From NCBI GenBank assembly GCA_015660995.1, contig JACTUC010000006.1:14565-78564 (forward strand): 64,000 nt of DNA, written 5' to 3'. The notes below the pieces were generated by a model. That model saw only the letters and a list, made by a program, of their open reading frames with translations, did not search any database and was not told the DNA's origin. Of this stretch, positions 48,073-55,664 are shown piece by piece. Within the stretch, counting starts at the first letter, position 1, and the number at the start of each line of letters is the position of its first letter. Source of the stretch: Candidatus Methanomethylicaceae archaeon (GTDB lineage: Archaea > Thermoproteota > Methanomethylicia > Methanomethylicales > Methanomethylicaceae). The translations under genes and the position numbers were made by a program.

Positions 48073-49242
48073 TTGAGATATTTCACCAGCCCATACAACT
48101 TTCTTCACCAGGAATGCAGACAGATAAAGATCTACGATACGACCCTCAGGGATGGGGAGCAAACCCCGGGCGTCAAGTTCACGAAAGAGCACAAGGTCCA
48201 GATCGCGAGGAAGCTCGACACCTTGGGCGTGCACACAATTGAGGCTGGGTTCCCTGTAATATCCGCCTATGACGAGGAGGCAGTCAGGGCCGTCGCAGCC
48301 GAGCACCTCAGCGCCGACGTCATATGCCTTTGCAGGTCAAAGAAGAAGGACATAGATGCCGCGCTGAGGGCAGACGTAGACGGAGTAATAATATTCCTGG
48401 CTGTGTCAGATCTACACCTGAAGCACAAGCTGCACATTGATCTCACGACCGCCGTGAACATGGCAGCAGAATCAATCTCCTACGCTAAGGAGCACGGCCT
48501 CTATGTCCAGCTCTCGGCTGAGGATGCCACACGAACCTCGCTTGACTCGCTGACAGCACTCTACAGTGCAGCAGAGGAGAGCGGGGCAGACAGGCTAGGC
48601 ATTGCGGACACGACAGGTTGCATAAGACCCCAGGGGATGCACTACCTCGTGGAATCGCTGCGGAAGGTCTTTGACACAGAGCTCTCGGTCCATTGCCACG
48701 ACGACTTCGGGCTGGCAGTGGCAAACTCGCTCGCAGCCTACGAGGCTGGCGTGGATGCGATATCTGTCACAGTCAACGGTCTCGGCGAGAGGTGTGGCAA
48801 CGCTGCACTGGAGGAGGTCGTTATGGCTCTCTATTCCCTATACGGGGTAGACCTCAAGTTCAGGATCGATCTGCTCAAGTCACTCTCTGACATGGTCTCG
48901 GAGTACTCTGGTATCCCTATCCCGATAAACAAGGCCGTCGTAGGCCCCAACGCTTTCAGGCATGAATCGGGGATCCACGTGGCTGCCGTGATGAAGTGCC
49001 CGTTCACCTATGAATCCTACGAGCCGCAGCTGGTGGGTCAGGACAGGAAGCTAGTCTTCGGCAGGCACTCCGGGTCCGACGGCGTCAGGGAGAAACTCAA
49101 GTCCTTTGGCTTAGCTATCAGCGATGAAGAGCTTGCTGACATCGTAAGCCAACTGAAGACCCTACCGATGGACGCCTATCTCGATAACGATGGGCTAGCC
49201 GATTTCGCCAAGAAGATCCTGGCGAAGAGGGGCAGAAGTTGA
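48073..49242 (+). CDS. aksA: Methanogen (R)-homocitrate synthase
   Basis: MRYFTSPYN..IYDTTLRDGEQTPGV, DVDGVI.F...SDLHLKHKL, HCHDDFGLA, GLGERCGN, HESGIH; no LeuA regulatory domain. Confidence 0.85.
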   Translation: MRYFTSPYNFLHQECRQIKIYDTTLRDGEQTPGVKFTKEHKVQIARKLDTLGVHTIEAGFPVISAYDEEAVRAVAAEHLSADVICLCRSKKKDIDAALRADVDGVIIFLAVSDLHLKHKLHIDLTTAVNMAAESISYAKEHGLYVQLSAEDATRTSLDSLTALYSAAEESGADRLGIADTTGCIRPQGMHYLVESLRKVFDTELSVHCHDDFGLAVANSLAAYEAGVDAISVTVNGLGERCGNAALEEVVMALYSLYGVDLKFRIDLLKSLSDMVSEYSGIPIPINKAVVGPNAFRHESGIHVAAVMKCPFTYESYEPQLVGQDRKLVFGRHSGSDGVREKLKSFGLAISDEELADIVSQLKTLPMDAYLDNDGLADFAKKILAKRGRS

Positions 49243-50066
49243 GCAAAGGAGTCTATTCACTCGCCACATCCAACAAGGCAAAGGTGGCGGTTGGGCTCAA
49301 TTCGGACCTCCCGTCAGCGGAGAGGGTGGTGAACTCGGCCCTCTTCGCCAAGAGGGAAGGTTACGCCGAGCCAATTTTCATCTCTGCGAAGAAACCCGAA
49401 TCCCCCCTATTCGATGCAGTAGGCAAGGACATGTCTCTTATCGTGGACAAATCTCCACACGTGACACTGGTCGAGCTCCTGAAGGAAGGCACGGTGGATT
49501 CTGCCATCAGGGGCAACCTCGCTTCCAAGGAACTCATACCCCTGCTCCGCGAGGAGTTCAATTGTCCCAACCTCTGCCGCATCACCCTGCTCGACATAGC
49601 AAATAGGCTCGTTATGCTGGCGCCTGTGGGCATAGACGAGGGGGACAAGCTGGAGGACCTACTCATGATAGCAGGGCACGCAAAGAGGCTGGCAGAGGCG
49701 CTCAGGATGCCATGCAATGTCGCAGTCATCTCAGGAGGGCGGCTCGAGGACAGGGGAAGAAGCAAGAAAGTGGACAGCATGCTATCTGCCTCGGAATCGC
49801 TCACGAAGGAGCTGAAGGCGGTGGGTATTAGCGCTGTGAATGTCGGGATCGAGATCGAGCGGGCAATAGAGGGCGACTCAACCCTCATACTTGCTCCCGA
49901 TGGCGTGATGGGAAACCTGATCTTCAGATCGCTTGTCCTAGTTGGGAACGTCGAGAGCTTCGGGGCCTACGCGGCTGCACTGCCGAGGGTTTATGTCGAC
50001 ACCTCGCGGGCTAAGGGAAGCTTCATGCTGCCAATAGTCCTTGCCAGCGCCCTCAGCAAGCTTTAA
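49239..50066 (+). CDS. mtxX: Methanogenesis marker protein 4 (MtxX family)
   Basis: VDSAIRG, LAPVGIDEG, SGGRLEDRGRS..VD, APDG..GNLIFRSL, VDTSR. Confidence 0.88.
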   Translation: MSKGVYSLATSNKAKVAVGLNSDLPSAERVVNSALFAKREGYAEPIFISAKKPESPLFDAVGKDMSLIVDKSPHVTLVELLKEGTVDSAIRGNLASKELIPLLREEFNCPNLCRITLLDIANRLVMLAPVGIDEGDKLEDLLMIAGHAKRLAEALRMPCNVAVISGGRLEDRGRSKKVDSMLSASESLTKELKAVGISAVNVGIEIERAIEGDSTLILAPDGVMGNLIFRSLVLVGNVESFGAYAAALPRVYVDTSRAKGSFMLPIVLASALSKL

Positions 50067-50144
50067 AGGCCCCGCACTGCTTGGCGCGGCATTACGACAA
50101 CTAAAAATAGCCGCCATACCCTCTTATAGGAAGAGGTCTCAACA

Positions 50145-51380
50145 TTGGGAAGCACAGCTGTTGAGAAGATAATTTCTCGTTCCGCGGGCCGAGCCGTGCA
50201 GGTGGGCGAGTTCGTCGAGGTTCCTGTAGATTTTGCCTATTTACACGATGGCACAGGCCCATTGATCGTAGATGCCCTCGGCAAGATGGGCGTTGAGAAG
50301 GTCATTGACCCAGACAGAGTGGGGATAGTCTTCGATCACTCCGTCCCGCCATACAGCGACCAGGCAGCAACTCTGCAAGCAAAAGTTAGGAAGTTTGCAA
50401 GGTCTCAGGGGATATTGAAGTTCCATGACCTCGGCGAAGGCATATGCCACCAGGTTATGCCCGAGAAGGGCTATGTCAGCCCTGGAACAGTTGTGATAGG
50501 CGCCGATTCCCATAGCTGCACTCTCGGCTGCTTCGGGCTCTTCTCATCTGGTGTGGGTGCAACGGACCTGGCCTACATACTCGCCACCGGGGGCACATGG
50601 CTCAAGGTCCCTGAGACTCTGAAGGTAGAATGCACAGGGGTTCTGAAAGGCAAGTTGTCGTCGAAGGACCTCATACTAGAGATCGTGAAGATGGTCGGGA
50701 CCGACGGCGCAACCTACAAGGCGCTTGAATTCAGTGGCGAGGCGGTCCGGCAGATGTCCCAATCATCAAGGATGACCATGTCCAACATGGCTGTGGAGAT
50801 GGGCGCAAAGACTGGATTCATGGAGGCGGACGCGAAGACATTCGAGTTCCTCGGCAGGACAGGTCCCGTCGTCAAGACCGACTCCAAGACCGAGACCGTG
50901 ACCGTCGATGCTGGCAGTCTCGATCCCAAGGTCGCCTGCCCGGGGAGCGTAGCCAACGTGAAATCAGTTGTAGAGGTAGAGGGTACCCACATCGATCAGG
51001 CATTCCTGGGCTCGTGCACCAACGGGAGGTATGAGGACCTCTACGAAGCCGCGAAGATAATAAAGGGGAAGAAGGTGCACCAGGATACTAGGTTCATTGT
51101 AATCCCCGCCTCGAAGACTATACAGCTGGCGGCGCAGAAGGACGGGCTCATGGACATATTCCAGGAAGCTGGCGCAATTATAGGTGTTACCGGCTGCGGG
51201 CCGTGCTTGGGCGTGCATATGGGGGTCTTGGGTGAGAATGAGGTCTGCGTATCCACTTCCAACAGGAACTTCATTGGGAGGATGGGTCACCCCAAGTCCT
51301 CGGTCTACCTTGCTTCCGCGCAGACGGTTGCGGCGTCAGCAGTCGAGGGGAAGATAACCGATCCAAGGAGGTTTGCTTGA
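50145..51380 (+). CDS. aksD: Homoaconitase large subunit
   Basis: [42 protein letters not shown]. Confidence 0.85.
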
Positions 51381-51868
51381 TGCTAAAAGGTCGAGTCTGG
51401 AAGTTCGGGGATGACGTCGACACCGATGTGATTATACCTGCAAAGTACCTCCGGTCTGTGGACCAGACTGTATGGCCGAAGCACGTTCTGGAGGGGCTCG
51501 ATCCCAGCTTCAGCTTAAAGGTGAAGCTTGGCGACATAATCGTCGCGGGTAAGAACTTTGGCTGCGGCTCCAGCAGGGAACAGGCAGCACTGGCGATCAA
51601 GTGGGCTGGTGTGGCTGCCGTGATTGCCGAATCCTTCGCTAGAATATTCTTCAGGAACGCCATAAACAACGGCCTACCCCTGATCGAATGCAGGGGGATA
51701 AGCAAGCTCGTGGAGGAGGGAGAGGTCATAGCGGTTGACCTCGATCGCGGCGAGGTCCGCACAAACAATGGGATGTTGAGGTCGGTCCCACTGCCGCCAT
51801 TCCTGCAGGAAATTGTCAACAGCGGTGGCCTCGTCGAGTACTATAAAGCAAGAAAGAAGGTGCATTGA
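51377..51868 (+). CDS. aksE: Homoaconitase small subunit
   Basis: [13 protein letters not shown] (YLRx loop of tricarboxylate-acting enzymes), [20 protein letters not shown]. Confidence 0.85.
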
Positions 51869-53473
51869 TTGTCTAGGATCACACAACGGGATGCCGGATC
51901 GCCCAACACATCCCAGGTCGTGGTGAAGGCCCTTGAGAAGCTCGGCATTGGCGTCGCCTTCGGCATACCAGGCATGTGGTCATTGCCAATCTATGATGCG
52001 CTCTGCGACTCGAAGATACGACACGTCCTCGTCAGGCACGAGCAGTTTGCGGCCTATGCTGCTGACGGGTACGCAAGGGCTTCCGGGAAGCCAGGCTTCT
52101 GCCTAGGCACGGCTGGACCTGGCGCAGTCAACATCGCAGCAGGCATCGCTGTGCCGTTCCGAGACCATTCCCCGGTCATCGCAGTGACCGGTCAGGTTCC
52201 CACTTTCGAGCAAGGGAAAGGATGGATAGAGGATCTCGACCTCCAGGCAATATTTTCTCCCGTTACCAAATCCACAGCGCAGATCTCGGACCCAACAAAT
52301 GCATACGAGACCATCACCGCCGCATACCTTTCATCAATCGAGGGGTGTCCCGGCCCCTCCCACGTAAGCATACCTGGGGATATCCAGAAGGCGCCATCCA
52401 AGATGAGGGATTACTCCCCGCTCCCTTCCAAGCCCGAACCCGACCCATCAGCCATCGACCAAGTCATGGACGCCATAGCCTCGTCGCAAGCCCCGCTCAT
52501 AATCTCAGGGTGGGGTGCAATCCTATCCGAATCCTCCGAGGGCATTCTGAAGCTCGCCGAGGCGCTTCCAGCACCCGTAACCACATCCTACATGGGCAGA
52601 GGAATAATACCGGAGGACAACCCGCTTTCCCTTGGTCCTGCAGGAAGAAGGGGGACGAAGGAAGCAAACGCTGCTCTCTCCAGATGCGACCTGCTCATAA
52701 CCCTAGGATGCAGGCTGACCAACCTGACGGTCGCGGGCGCTAAGCTGACCTGCAAAGTAGTTCAGGTGGATGTCGATGAAAACAACTTTTCATCCTACGC
52801 CTCGGTCAGGGTGAAAAGCGACGTTGCACTCTTCCTGGACGCAATACTGCCCAAAATCCAACATCGCTCAGGTGAACTTAACCCTCTGATGGGCTCTGTG
52901 AGCGAGCTGCCCGAAAAAGGGGAGGCCCCTGCCTTCGCCAGGGCCATCGCATCCTTCAATGATGCCCTATTCTCCCTCGACATTGGACAGCATACCATTT
53001 GGCTGATGCACGCGCTGAAGGTCAAGAGACCGCGGAGCGTGATCCTCTCGGGCAACCTCTCTGCAATGGGTTACTCCCTGCCTGCAGCCATCGGGGCAAA
53101 GCTGGCCTCGCCAGAACGCAGGGTCATTGTCGTGATCGGCGATGGCGGCTTCCAGATGACCGCCCCCGAGCTCTCTACCATCAGGGAGAACGACCTCGAC
53201 ATATCCATATGCGTATTCAACAACCGTACGCTGGGACTGATAAAGCAGCAGCAGGAGGTCGTCTACGGCAGGACGTGCGGTGTGGACTATACACGCCCTC
53301 CAGACTATGTCAAGCTTGCTCAAGCCTATGGCATTAAGGGACTAAAGATAGATTCCCCCTCCGCCCTCAAAGAAGCACTCCAGATAGCTGACGAGCCTAC
53401 GGTCTTTGATATTCCAATCCCAAAGAAGGAAGGCGTCGAGATGTCAAGACCTAGGATCCTCGACAATCAATGA
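51869..53473 (+). CDS. ThDP-dependent enzyme (three-domain decarboxylase/AHAS-like family), substrate unknown
   Basis: FGIPG, RHEQ catalytic Glu, GPG..N, GDGGFQM...NN; lacks AHAS-specific motifs. Confidence 0.85.
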   Translation: MSRITQRDAGSPNTSQVVVKALEKLGIGVAFGIPGMWSLPIYDALCDSKIRHVLVRHEQFAAYAADGYARASGKPGFCLGTAGPGAVNIAAGIAVPFRDHSPVIAVTGQVPTFEQGKGWIEDLDLQAIFSPVTKSTAQISDPTNAYETITAAYLSSIEGCPGPSHVSIPGDIQKAPSKMRDYSPLPSKPEPDPSAIDQVMDAIASSQAPLIISGWGAILSESSEGILKLAEALPAPVTTSYMGRGIIPEDNPLSLGPAGRRGTKEANAALSRCDLLITLGCRLTNLTVAGAKLTCKVVQVDVDENNFSSYASVRVKSDVALFLDAILPKIQHRSGELNPLMGSVSELPEKGEAPAFARAIASFNDALFSLDIGQHTIWLMHALKVKRPRSVILSGNLSAMGYSLPAAIGAKLASPERRVIVVIGDGGFQMTAPELSTIRENDLDISICVFNNRTLGLIKQQQEVVYGRTCGVDYTRPPDYVKLAQAYGIKGLKIDSPSALKEALQIADEPTVFDIPIPKKEGVEMSRPRILDNQ

Positions 53474-53518
53474 GATTAATAGCTGGCGACATAAAAACAA
53501 AGAGCGAGGGTACATCCA

Positions 53519-54490
53519 ATGGCGGAATACTATTCTAGAGACGCCATAGTGAAACTCCTTTCCTCGAAGAAATGGATCTCCCCCCATAAGAAGGTCGTCG
53601 TGGCCGTGGACAAGAAGGCTGGAGTGGCGGAACTTATCGAGGATCACGCCAGAGGAACATGCCTCGGGGGATCGGCTTGGTCGCTCTACCACTATACGGA
53701 GAACAGCAAGTCTGTCTTCTGGTCAAAGAGAGAGGGCTCGCGCCTCTTCTATAAGCTGAAGCTGTCTGAAGAGAATGCTCCAAGTAAGTTGGAGGCGAGC
53801 TACCACCCAGCATCCATAGAGTCGATCCACTTGGATGGTGACAAGGTAAGGGTGACCTATTCTGGGCTCGCCGGAGCTGGCGTGGCAGCCCTCAGCAGAG
53901 GCTTGGCAGAGGGTGTTGAGGCAGTTGAAGTTCAGGAATGGGGGGGTGGGAAGAAACTGGGCAGAGCAACCATCATCCTCCCACTGAAGGAAAAGCTGAT
54001 AATCGGCGTTGACGACACAGACAAATCCGATGAGGGCGCCACCTGGTCCTTGGTTAACGAGATTGCCTTTGAGATCTCAAAATTGGAGGGGGTCGACTAT
54101 CTTGAGCATGCCATTGTACAGCTCTACCCACAGAATCCCTTCAAGACCCAGAACTGCGTCTCCCTCTCCGTCTCATTCGCCGTCCCTCCGTCCCTAAAAG
54201 AAGGGATAGTAGAAAGGTTCAAAGACGCCATTGGGGAAAGGACGTTCTCCAAGGAGACCGCCATGGCATACTTCAATGGTGTAATGATCAAGGAAGAACT
54301 GATGGCTTTCTCCAAAAGGGCAAAGTTGGAGATGGTGACCGTTGAAGACGCGGAAGAGGCAGCAGAAATGGCTGGCGTCTCGACTATTAAAATAACGGGT
54401 GCTAGGGGGCTAATAGGTGCAGTAGCCGCAATACCCTATGTTGAGTATCCCGACGAAGCCGTTCGCATCTCTGGCGATCAAGTTGTTTGA
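53519..54490 (+). CDS. Methanogenesis marker protein 11 (TiaS-kinase-like C-terminal half)
   Basis: W..P.KKV, GLAGAGV..RGLAEGV, GGGKKLGRA, IGVDDTD..EGATW, VQLYPQNPFKTQNCVS. Confidence 0.85.
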   Translation: MAEYYSRDAIVKLLSSKKWISPHKKVVVAVDKKAGVAELIEDHARGTCLGGSAWSLYHYTENSKSVFWSKREGSRLFYKLKLSEENAPSKLEASYHPASIESIHLDGDKVRVTYSGLAGAGVAALSRGLAEGVEAVEVQEWGGGKKLGRATIILPLKEKLIIGVDDTDKSDEGATWSLVNEIAFEISKLEGVDYLEHAIVQLYPQNPFKTQNCVSLSVSFAVPPSLKEGIVERFKDAIGERTFSKETAMAYFNGVMIKEELMAFSKRAKLEMVTVEDAEEAAEMAGVSTIKITGARGLIGAVAAIPYVEYPDEAVRISGDQVV

Positions 54491-55664
54491 CTTTATCGTC
54501 GTCGGTTCTGGGGCGGGGGGCGCAACTGTAGCCAAGGAACTCTCCGCAGCGGGAAAGAAGGTGCTGCTGCTTGAGAGGGGCATACAACTGCCACCACGAA
54601 AGTCCTCCAAAGCATACTCTATTCTGAAATCCGACGTGGAGGTCTGGCATACCCAATGCCTGGGCGGAACAACGGTGGTTACCATGGGCAACGCTGTCAG
54701 GAGCAAGCTCGATGGTTCACTTTCGCGTTATTACGCCGAGGCAGAGGAGGGGCTTGGGGTTATCCCGGTGCCGGAAGACCACTTGGGCATGGCAACCAAG
54801 TCACTGCTCTCCCTCTCAGATGAATGGGTCAGAATGCCCAAGGCTATAGACTTCAGTAAGTGTAGAGGCTGTGGGCACTGCTCCTCGGGGTGTCCGACAT
54901 CGGCCAGATGGGACGCCACAGCCTATATTCGGGAGGCTATCTCTAACAGCTGCAAGGTTTCTACCAGTGTCGACATAAAGAAAGTATTGATTAAGGGCAA
55001 TAGAGCGGTGGGCGTTGAAGCCTCTGACGGAAAAACCTTCGAAGCTGGCGGCGTAATCCTAGCTGCAGGAGCCATCGAAACGCCTAGGATCCTATCACGA
55101 TCAGGCATAATCTCGGCTGGGAAGGGGCTCTTCGTCGACACCTTCGTAACCATCGGGGGCTTTAAAAGAGGTGTTTCGATGGATCGGGAGCTCGGTATGG
55201 CTGCCTTTCTAAAGAGGGAAGGTTACCTGATATCACCTCATTACTCAAGTTTTCTACCCAATCTGATAGAAGAGAAAGGTGTGTCGCTCAAACCATCCGA
55301 CATATTGAGCCTAATGGTAAAGATTGAAGATGAGCCCATCGGCGAGGTTACCCCAAATGGCATTGTTAAAACCATATCACGGCGGGACTCTACCCTTTTG
55401 GAGAGTGGTAAGCGCGAAGCGATGGAGCTTCTAATCAAAGCCGGGGTAGACTCGGACACAGTTGTATCTGTACACCCAAGGGGCGCACACCCAGGCGGAA
55501 CCTGTTCCAATATGGTGAAATCGCCTTTGGAAGCTAGCACAGAGATTGACTCCCTGTACATCTCGGACGCGAGCATACTTCCCGGTCCATTTGGCCTGCC
55601 GCCAATGCTCACAATAATCGCAATTTCCAAGAGGATATCTGGCATACTACTTGGAAGAGCCTAG
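54483..55664 (+). CDS. GMC-family FAD oxidoreductase with CxxCxxCxxxC motif
   Basis: VGSGAGG, CRGCGHCSSGCP, LAAGAIETPRIL, HPGGT, DASILP..G.PP.LTI; TTG start overlaps the Mmp11 stop. Confidence 0.85.
   Translation: MFDFIVVGSGAGGATVAKELSAAGKKVLLLERGIQLPPRKSSKAYSILKSDVEVWHTQCLGGTTVVTMGNAVRSKLDGSLSRYYAEAEEGLGVIPVPEDHLGMATKSLLSLSDEWVRMPKAIDFSKCRGCGHCSSGCPTSARWDATAYIREAISNSCKVSTSVDIKKVLIKGNRAVGVEASDGKTFEAGGVILAAGAIETPRILSRSGIISAGKGLFVDTFVTIGGFKRGVSMDRELGMAAFLKREGYLISPHYSSFLPNLIEEKGVSLKPSDILSLMVKIEDEPIGEVTPNGIVKTISRRDSTLLESGKREAMELLIKAGVDSDTVVSVHPRGAHPGGTCSNMVKSPLEASTEIDSLYISDASILPGPFGLPPMLTIIAISKRISGILLGRA

Follow-up and report, generated by a model that had tools for sequence, protein, structure and literature searches.

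We analysed a 64,000-nucleotide stretch (the window; C3:14565-78564 of the source genome, which is 1.63 Mb and 98.3% complete) from a Candidatus Methanomethylicaceae archaeon. At positions 51869-53473 it carries a gene for a thiamine diphosphate (ThDP)-dependent enzyme, located among aks genes of 2-oxoacid chain elongation. The protein resembles the large subunit of acetohydroxyacid synthase (AHAS). However, the view that it is not an AHAS, already put forward in an initial annotation of this DNA, is well supported by sequence comparison because the protein scores under the curated cut-offs, has lost the acceptor-site residues and belongs to a distinct clade (clade X), and because a separate ilvBN pair is present elsewhere in the genome. 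Clade X probably comprises 2-oxoacid decarboxylases, different from AHAS, that act on a product of the Aks pathway. As the best specific explanation, to which we give about an even chance, clade X would decarboxylate 2-oxosuberate non-oxidatively to 7-oxoheptanoate for the synthesis of coenzyme B.

As the electron donor to methyl-coenzyme M reductase, coenzyme B is required in almost all biological methane formation and in anaerobic methane oxidation. To our knowledge, no genes have been assigned to the coenzyme B pathway past 2-oxosuberate since its chemistry was solved around 1989.

Comparison with acetohydroxyacid synthase

The ThDP open reading frame (ORF) starts with a TTG codon at 51869, immediately after the TGA stop codon (51866-51868) of the hacB-like ORF for a homoaconitase small subunit, so that the start abuts the aksE/HacB-like stop as had been noted from the sequence. 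Because the two codons abut and a Shine-Dalgarno-like AAGGTG stretch lies about 8 nt 5' of the TTG, the hacB-like and ThDP genes are translationally juxtaposed. The encoded protein matches the Pfam domains TPP_enzyme_N (PF02776), M (PF00205) and C (PF02775) in this order. Its top NCBIfam matches are AHAS large-subunit models, and all 25 listed AHAS-type models score under their cut-offs (for example, 403.5 bits with a cut-off of 538.35 for TIGR00118, and 425.4 bits with a cut-off of 866 for PRK06276). The AlphaFold model (mean pLDDT of 87.8, pTM of 0.89) retrieved only AHAS structures in a fold search, with TM-scores of 0.88-0.90 to the A. thaliana and E. coli enzymes, a result that goes no further than the sequence, and E. 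coli AHAS I (6lpi) is the best solved sequence match at 275 bits.

The genome contains two AHAS-type genes, the window ThDP gene and a canonical ilvB on contig C20, the product of which scores 776.5 bits with TIGR00118, over the cut-off. The gene directly downstream of this ilvB is the sole ilvN match in the genome. Thus, the separate ilvBN that the initial annotation had suggested looking for does exist.

The window protein is 36% identical to the genome's own IlvB. It shares with AHAS (IlvB/IlvI, TIGR00118) the three-domain ThDP fold, the catalytic Glu and GDG...NN; in the alignment with IlvB, the cofactor residues E58, D425 and N452 are conserved, and the ThDP motifs, including E58 of RHEQ and GDGG...NN, are intact as previously described. 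The differences are found in the motifs KDAFQEAD, MRFSDRS and MVRQWQ of IlvB, which became KGWIEDLD, CRLTNLT and LIKQQQ. All three replacements of AHAS signatures listed in the initial annotation were seen, although LIKQQQ alone is not diagnostic, as E. coli AHAS I also has QQQ. The residues F206, Q207, K256, R377 and W574 of A. thaliana AHAS, which we take to function in acceptor or herbicide binding, correspond to I120, E121, G170, L286 and Q461 in the window protein; Glu thus occupies the position of Q207, and the other four are lost. Likewise, the FAD-site motifs GGG (A. thaliana 307-309) and RFDDR are replaced by GWG and RLTNL, and the binding of FAD has probably been lost.

The gene is also set apart from AHAS genes by its location in an aks operon and the absence of an ilvN partner. 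Its neighbours encode HacB and methanogenesis marker 11 (Mmp11), in agreement with the earlier statement that neither ilvN nor ilvC is adjacent. Could it still be a second, divergent AHAS isozyme? AHAS enzymes are the top matches in both sequence and fold, and QQQ in place of QWQ is compatible with AHAS I. Against these two points stand scores below every curated cut-off, the loss of the active-site Gln, Phe, Lys, Arg and Trp altogether, a locus without ilvN in a genome with canonical ilvBN, and an operon context other than branched-chain amino acid synthesis. We therefore consider an isozyme very improbable.

Extent and residue signature of clade X

Homologues with 54-100% identity to the window protein are all from Methanomethylicia (Verstraetearchaeota), where the named homologues also place the source organism, and the next group does not exceed 43%. 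We tallied residues in an alignment of 68 clade X sequences and 60 canonical or Methanobacterium-type sequences, which consisted of homologues longer than 480 aa and translated loci, excluding P0002, which is identical to the window protein. For the A. thaliana numbering, we used the alignment of the window protein with solved AHAS sequences; it agrees with the W574L title of the entry 7u25. At the position of Q207, Glu is found in 68/68 clade X sequences and Gln in 60/60 of the comparison set; at F374, the corresponding residues are Leu (68/68) and Phe (60/60). No clade X sequence has Phe at F206, Lys at K256, Arg at R377 or Trp at W574 (0/68 each), which are found in 60, 57, 60 and 57 of the 60 comparison sequences, respectively. 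Gly at G308 is retained in 1/68 clade X sequences and in 25/60 of the comparison set, including 24/24 canonical IlvB. The catalytic Glu and the Asp of GDG are retained in all 128 aligned sequences and the second Asn of NN in 125/128, with Asp in 3/5 rows of a metagenomic group (g57). With all 68 members of the clade carrying the substitutions and none of the 60 comparison sequences doing so, chance is evidently not the explanation.

A tree of 40 rows was calculated with IQ-TREE (quick search, with the SH-like approximate likelihood-ratio test, SH-aLRT, as the only support) and rooted on E. coli oxalyl-CoA decarboxylase (Oxc) and pyruvate oxidase (PoxB); its root is uncertain, as both outgroups are long-branched. 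Clade X forms one clade of 17 rows (SH-aLRT 99) that contains Methanomethylicaceae (f1), a sister family (f2, represented by genome G165), g57, a Nezhaarchaeota-labelled family (f5) and the protein P0093. The f5 ThDP protein scores ~235-241 bits against clade X proteins and ~185-196 bits against IlvB. The sister of clade X is a 535-aa paralogue typical of Methanobacterium (SH-aLRT 96), and canonical IlvB, including E. coli IlvI, falls outside both groups.

A clade X profile was searched against 1.84 billion representatives and retrieved 10,100 proteins at E <= 1e-30. The signature, taken here as Glu at Q207 together with no Lys and no Arg, is present in five of the best 150 matches (P0059, P0017, P0243, P0244 and P0245). 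Two more are probable members: P0093, which was misaligned in the profile search and carries the signature in the 68/60-sequence alignment, and P0246, which has a gap at the Q207 site and lacks the Lys and Arg. These seven score between 789 and 508 bits. The remaining 143 of the best 150 start at 475 bits, and 142 of them have F-Q, the exception being P0347 with F-E and the Arg kept. The matched clusters bear the source names Nezhaarchaeota, Methanomethylicota/Verstraetearchaeota, 'Thermoprotei archaeon' and 'Nitrososphaerales archaeon', all metagenome-assembled genomes (MAGs). Judging from these matches, clade X is small and sharply bounded.

The 535-aa 'thiamine pyrophosphate-binding protein' of the Methanobacterium type (e.g. 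P0120) has in common with clade X an Arg at the position of A. thaliana H352 and Lys/Arg at position 572. Unlike clade X, it keeps F-Q, K256, R377 and W574 in 36/36 sequences. We rejected it as an equivalent of clade X on account of the retained AHAS residues and its unrelated context. In Methanobacterium ferruginis, the gene (L181 9033-10628) is located beside B12-radical-SAM genes and an acetyl-CoA synthetase gene, not aks genes, and its product scores 495.6 bits, just below the AHAS cut-off of 538.35. Two paralogues of Mnemosynella were also dismissed: the first is glyoxylate-carboligase-like and adjoins a glyoxylate reductase gene, the second adjoins a gene without any family match, and neither has a link to aks genes.

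Comparison with other E. coli K-12 ThDP enzymes suggests what the changed active site might do. At the AFQE site of AHAS III, the aligned sequences of Oxc, PoxB and glyoxylate carboligase (Gcl) read DYEE, YFQE and DFQA, respectively; the two ligases (AHAS III and Gcl) and the oxidase PoxB retain F-Q. Oxc, a non-oxidative ThDP decarboxylase of the same superfamily, has Glu for Gln like clade X and is also without the AHAS Lys, Arg and Trp. The two are otherwise distant: Oxc shares 25% identity with the window protein, which overall is closer to AHAS and does not cluster with this long-branch outgroup in the tree. Oxc uses a CoA thioester as substrate, and the window protein gave no indication of an ADP/CoA site, although no search aimed at one was made; the common features are limited to Glu-for-Gln and the lost AHAS residues. 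This pattern suggests convergence on a decarboxylase-type active site within the AHAS scaffold. The branched-chain 2-keto acid decarboxylases KdcA and KivD have reportedly been used in engineered pathways on 2-oxopimelate and Aks 2-oxo-diacids to produce omega-oxo acids; these members of the PDC/IPDC subfamily do not occur natively in methanogens.

Gene order around the ThDP gene

The ThDP gene is one of seven plus-strand genes at 48073-55664 of the window:

48073-49242, plus strand: AksA-like homocitrate/2-oxoacid-elongating synthase, 389 aa, HMGL-like and HCS_D2 domains, no LeuA regulatory domain
49239-50066, plus strand: methanogenesis marker 4 (Mmp4)/MtxX-like protein, TIGR03270 at 186.2 bits (cut-off 190)
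50145-51380, plus strand: homoaconitase large subunit, HacA/AksD-like, hacA_fam TIGR01343 at 546 bits (over cut-off)
51377-51868, plus strand: homoaconitase small subunit, HacB/AksE-like, LEUD_arch at 218.7 bits (over cut-off)
51869-53473, plus strand: clade X ThDP enzyme, candidate 2-oxosuberate decarboxylase, 534 aa
53519-54490, plus strand: Mmp11 with a TiaS TCKD kinase-like domain, TIGR03280 at 316.9 bits (cut-off 255.8), PF22641
54438-55664, plus strand: small GMC-type FAD oxidoreductase with a 4Fe-4S motif (GMC_oxred_N, FAD-binding, Fer4)

In f1, the 15 loci have HacB directly 5' of the ThDP gene in 15/15 cases and Mmp11 directly 3' of it in 14/15, the fifteenth locus ending at a contig end; the GMC gene follows Mmp11 in 14/14. 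The AksA-Mmp4 pair is directly 5' of HacA in 8/15 loci and displaced by ~1-6 kb in 4/15 (in three of these, only Mmp4 lies within range). In the other 3/15, it was not seen, owing to a contig end or no match within the fetched range. The single f2 locus (G165) reads mmp4-aksA-hacA-hacB-aksF-ThDP-mmp11 with overlapping stops and starts, in which the gene between hacB and the ThDP gene encodes a protein 61% identical to an AksF-type dehydrogenase. In f5, where the ThDP proteins are 33-34% identical to the window protein, the ThDP gene immediately follows aksA in 6/6 loci; Mmp11 is the next gene in 2/6, 4 kb downstream in one and ~20 kb away in another, and the two remaining contigs are too short. 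The four loci of g57 have the order aksA-hacA-hacB-aksF-ThDP-GMC oxidoreductase, with the ThDP and GMC genes adjacent in 4/4.

The clade X gene is thus found within aks operons in four lineages and in three gene orders. These counts include synteny shared by descent among related genomes. That the ThDP gene adjoins aks genes in each of three distinct gene orders argues for selection on the linkage. The initial annotation had proposed the conversion of 2-oxosuberate into 7-oxoheptanoate as the end of chain elongation; the association with aksA, hacAB and aksF lends weight to this proposal, whereas the substrate and product are what we infer.

The AksA-like protein, encoded by one of six HMGL-type matches in the genome, reaches 468.5 bits with LEU1_arch and 387.6 bits with the nifV homocitrate synthase model, both under cut-off; the HacA/AksD-like and HacB/AksE-like proteins score 522.8 bits with HacA_Meth (cut-off 550) and 200.1 bits with HacB_Meth (cut-off 230). 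The substrate loop of the HacB-like protein is KYLRS, and those of the two other LeuD-like proteins in the genome are KYLVL and KYKFK. YLR[ST] is said to mark homoaconitases and YLVx isopropylmalate isomerases, and we take KYLRS to be of the homoaconitase type, which fits the aks assignment. The third LeuD-like small subunit, with the loop KYKFKT, is encoded at C15:1623-2090, ~4 kb from the dehydrogenase gene C15:5709-6680, the genome's best LEU3_arch/AksF-type match (402.6 bits).

The listed GMC ORF overlaps the Mmp11 ORF by 53 nt, and the true GMC start may lie downstream of the listed one. Neighbours of the GMC protein in the protein atlas are generic GMC-family clusters. Both flanks of the seven-gene unit carry sugar-nucleotide and glycosyltransferase genes, mostly on the opposite strand. 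A small (~400 aa) GMC/4Fe-4S oxidoreductase accompanies the ThDP gene or Mmp11 in f1, f2 and g57 (e.g. L198 10595-11824 and L071 4078-5304); it could process the aldehyde product, by either reductive thiolation or oxidation.

Mmp11 is tied to aks genes in several unrelated lineages (loci including L120, L142, L178 and L179): aksA and Mmp11 are adjacent in a Thermoplasmata contig, M. ferruginis has the order hacA-hacB-aksF-SufS-like-ribH-Mmp11, and the Nezhaarchaeota-labelled family has aksA-ThDP-Mmp11. Mmp11 also adjoins Mmp4 in Methanocellales and three other archaea (four unrelated loci, L098, L099, L100 and L106). Mmp11 and Mmp4 are candidates for ATP-dependent late steps of coenzyme B synthesis.

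Other neighbours are of the lipoate type. LplA-like, LipS1-like and LipS2-like genes follow the ThDP gene in genome G179 (L166 5882-9052), an LplA-like large subunit gene follows the GMC gene in g57 (L198 11837-12580), and a MSMEG_0568/LipS2-like radical SAM gene directly precedes Mmp11 in Methanocellales (L098 8925-10004). They may be a coincidence, or acyl-AMP ligase and sulfur-insertion chemistry may have been borrowed for a C7 thiol acid. The g57 operon also encodes a 399-aa protein before aksA (L198 3743-4942) with a weak butyrate-kinase-like match (39 bits), which, together with the phosphate-acyltransferase-like Mmp4, hints at acyl-phosphate chemistry.

Phyletic distribution and coenzyme M synthesis

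We surveyed 201 genomes of the phylum and 61 of the class. Each of the 16 other f1 genomes has a high-scoring orthologue of the window protein, in one case divided between two contig ends. The single f2 genome has a 396-bit match, and everything else among the 201 genomes is at the IlvB level (<=361 bits). Mmp11 exceeds its cut-off in 20/201 genomes, all from f1, f2 or f5, and a truncated copy occurs in one more f1 genome. The f5-type clade X gene is present in the three f5 genomes that have Mmp11, and neither gene was found in G151, an f5 genome that is ~93% complete. No clade X gene was found among class relatives without Mmp11 (f3, f4 and f6) in the 201-genome sample. Accordingly, clade X has been seen only in Mmp11-bearing Thermoproteota, namely f1, f2, f5 and the metagenomic g57. 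The survey of orthologues in methanogens proposed in the initial annotation therefore revealed a restriction to these families rather than a distribution over all Mmp11-bearing archaea.

Like ComDE, to which the initial annotation drew the analogy, clade X would be a ThDP decarboxylase that makes an aldehyde precursor, later thiolated, of a methanogen thiol cofactor, and the two look mutually exclusive among the Mmp11-bearing archaea sampled. This raises the alternative that clade X is a sulfopyruvate decarboxylase analogue that replaces ComDE in the coenzyme M synthesis of Thermoproteota methanogens. ComDE consists of two subunits and belongs to a different ThDP subfamily, and the window protein reaches 30.6 bits with the ComE model (cut-off 221.5; ComDE models TIGR03845/TIGR03846). 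In the source genome, we found no ComD match, only generic ThDP matches to the ComE model, no ComA, no cysteate synthase (best match 104 bits, cut-off 325), and no Mmp16 apart from Fer4-level matches. Thus, neither a known route to sulfopyruvate nor a known consumer of sulfoacetaldehyde is apparent in the 98.3%-complete genome. Moreover, PMC12244365 describes growth of the cultured relative Methanosuratincola petrocarbonis LWZ-6 with added coenzyme M, and in four lineages the clade X gene is part of aks operons, whose function does not extend to coenzyme M. A replacement of ComDE therefore appears rather improbable to us. Because the sulfopyruvate supply and the known last enzyme are missing, and in view of the LWZ-6 medium and the aks operon context, we favour the explanation that these organisms make coenzyme M by no known route: they either take the cofactor up or form it along an undiscovered one.

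A proposed 2-oxosuberate decarboxylase for coenzyme B

According to the explanation that we favour for clade X, the enzyme would be a non-oxidative 2-oxoacid decarboxylase that depends on ThDP and Mg, probably not on FAD, and that originated from the AHAS lineage and was recruited to terminate the AksA/HacAB/AksF chain elongation. Glu58 would activate ThDP, and the ylide would attack C2 of 2-oxosuberate. After the departure of CO2, the loss of the acceptor-binding Arg, Lys, Trp and Phe would keep the enamine from passing to another 2-ketoacid, and it would be protonated instead, plausibly by Glu121 in place of the AHAS Gln. Coenzyme B would form from the released 7-oxoheptanoate through thiolation, coupling with threonine and phosphorylation, reactions for which the Mmp11, Mmp4 and GMC/iron-sulfur (FeS) proteins of the same operon might be responsible. 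Such a step would be needed since these organisms bear methanogen markers and must make coenzyme B. Our comparisons show to which family the protein belongs, that the AHAS residues are lost, where the clade ends, how the gene is linked to operons and how it is distributed; that it decarboxylates and does not ligate, that its substrate is C8 and what becomes of the product are all inferred.

The literature is consistent with a gap at this step. Chadwick et al. 2025 (PMC12068725) describe the coenzyme B pathway as still unknown, and section 14.5 of Kaster et al. 2011 lists only the Aks enzymes for coenzyme B and names suberate semialdehyde as an intermediate. The LWZ-6 medium (PMC12244365) supplies coenzyme M, not coenzyme B, and yeast extract is needed. 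We found no gene assigned to 2-oxosuberate decarboxylation in a literature coverage outside of which most subscription-journal papers fall, and nothing on the synthesis of coenzyme M or coenzyme B in the Methanonezhaarchaeia cultivation paper.

The sequence does not reveal the substrate, and clade X might be a decarboxylase or carboligase for another one, either a shorter Aks intermediate (2-oxoadipate or 2-oxopimelate) or the substrate of a reaction linked to the lipoate-type genes that follow the clade X gene in G179 and the GMC gene in g57. The AHAS family has also evolved many ligase activities, such as that of HKA synthase, which is among the fold matches. However, the loop type of HacB, by the motif reading that we assume, suggests dicarboxylate intermediates, the known demand of methanogens for Aks products is C8, and the acceptor-site residues are lost with Glu replacing Gln as in Oxc. 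On balance, we regard another substrate as unlikely, yet as the most serious competitor to 2-oxosuberate.

Alternatively, the aldehyde produced from the Aks product could be oxidised by the GMC/FeS protein to pimelate, for example for biotin, or could serve both biotin and coenzyme B. Enzymes of the GMC type oxidise alcohols and aldehydes, the GMC gene adjoins the ThDP gene or Mmp11 in f1, f2 and g57 (directly 3' of the ThDP gene in all four g57 loci), and 2-oxosuberate is reported to be a precursor not only of coenzyme B but also of biotin. A need for biotin would not predict a clade confined to Mmp11-bearing lineages and not found in non-methanogenic relatives of the class, and both Mmp11 and Mmp4 are methanogen markers. 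A pimelate route thus seems improbable, slightly more so than the replacement of ComDE.

Several points weigh against 2-oxosuberate decarboxylation for coenzyme B as the function of clade X. No clade X gene was found in 10/10 Mmp11-bearing genomes outside the class, which were reached via loci and comprise Methanobacterium ferruginis, a Methanocellales MAG, Mnemosynella, a Bathyarchaeota MAG, a Thermoplasmata MAG (in which there was no AHAS-type match whatsoever), Methylarchaceae HK01M and four others. Because these organisms need coenzyme B as well, clade X is a speciality of Thermoproteota and not a universal enzyme; an unidentified universal enzyme, should there be one, would make clade X superfluous for this cofactor. 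Neither ComE nor ComA was found in any of the 61 genomes of the class (0/61 each), a complementary distribution that is real evidence for clade X as an analogue of ComDE. Chain-length specificity is not readable from the sequence; Arg261 (at the position of A. thaliana H352) and Lys/Arg459 are common to clade X and the Methanobacterium-type paralogue and hence non-specific, and the comparison with AHAS and Oxc depends on residue roles that we presume for these enzymes. The lipoate-type genes beside the clade X gene in two lineages have no explanation under 2-oxosuberate decarboxylation. Finally, the stretch is present in 24 listed DNA sequencing runs from peat and wetland metagenomes, and no RNA run among the sequencing runs listed contains it.

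A bolder and, in our opinion, unlikely extension is that the seven genes at 48073-55664 make up an almost entire operon for coenzyme B in Thermoproteota methanogens and together supply candidates for every orphan late step, in which the clade X decarboxylase would be followed by thiolation by the GMC/FeS protein and by threonine joining and/or phosphorylation by Mmp11 and Mmp4. The GMC/FeS flavoprotein is proposed for the reductive thiolation of 7-oxoheptanoate because Mmp16 was not found in the source genome. Mmp11, with its TiaS-like carbonyl-activating kinase domain, and the phosphate-acyltransferase-like Mmp4 would carry out the ATP-dependent joining of 7-mercaptoheptanoate with threonine and/or its phosphorylation. 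In that case, the enzymes universal to methanogens would be Mmp11 and Mmp4, whereas the decarboxylase would be lineage-specific.

With a concrete candidate gene and cultured relatives, the decarboxylation step can be tested by a simple assay of the enzyme. For the rest of the pathway, the operon suggests Mmp11 and Mmp4 as candidates, both of which other methanogens possess. If clade X indeed decarboxylates 2-oxosuberate, a defined set of substitutions would have converted an AHAS scaffold from carboligation to decarboxylation, and clade X might provide a native enzyme for the production of C7 omega-oxo acids.

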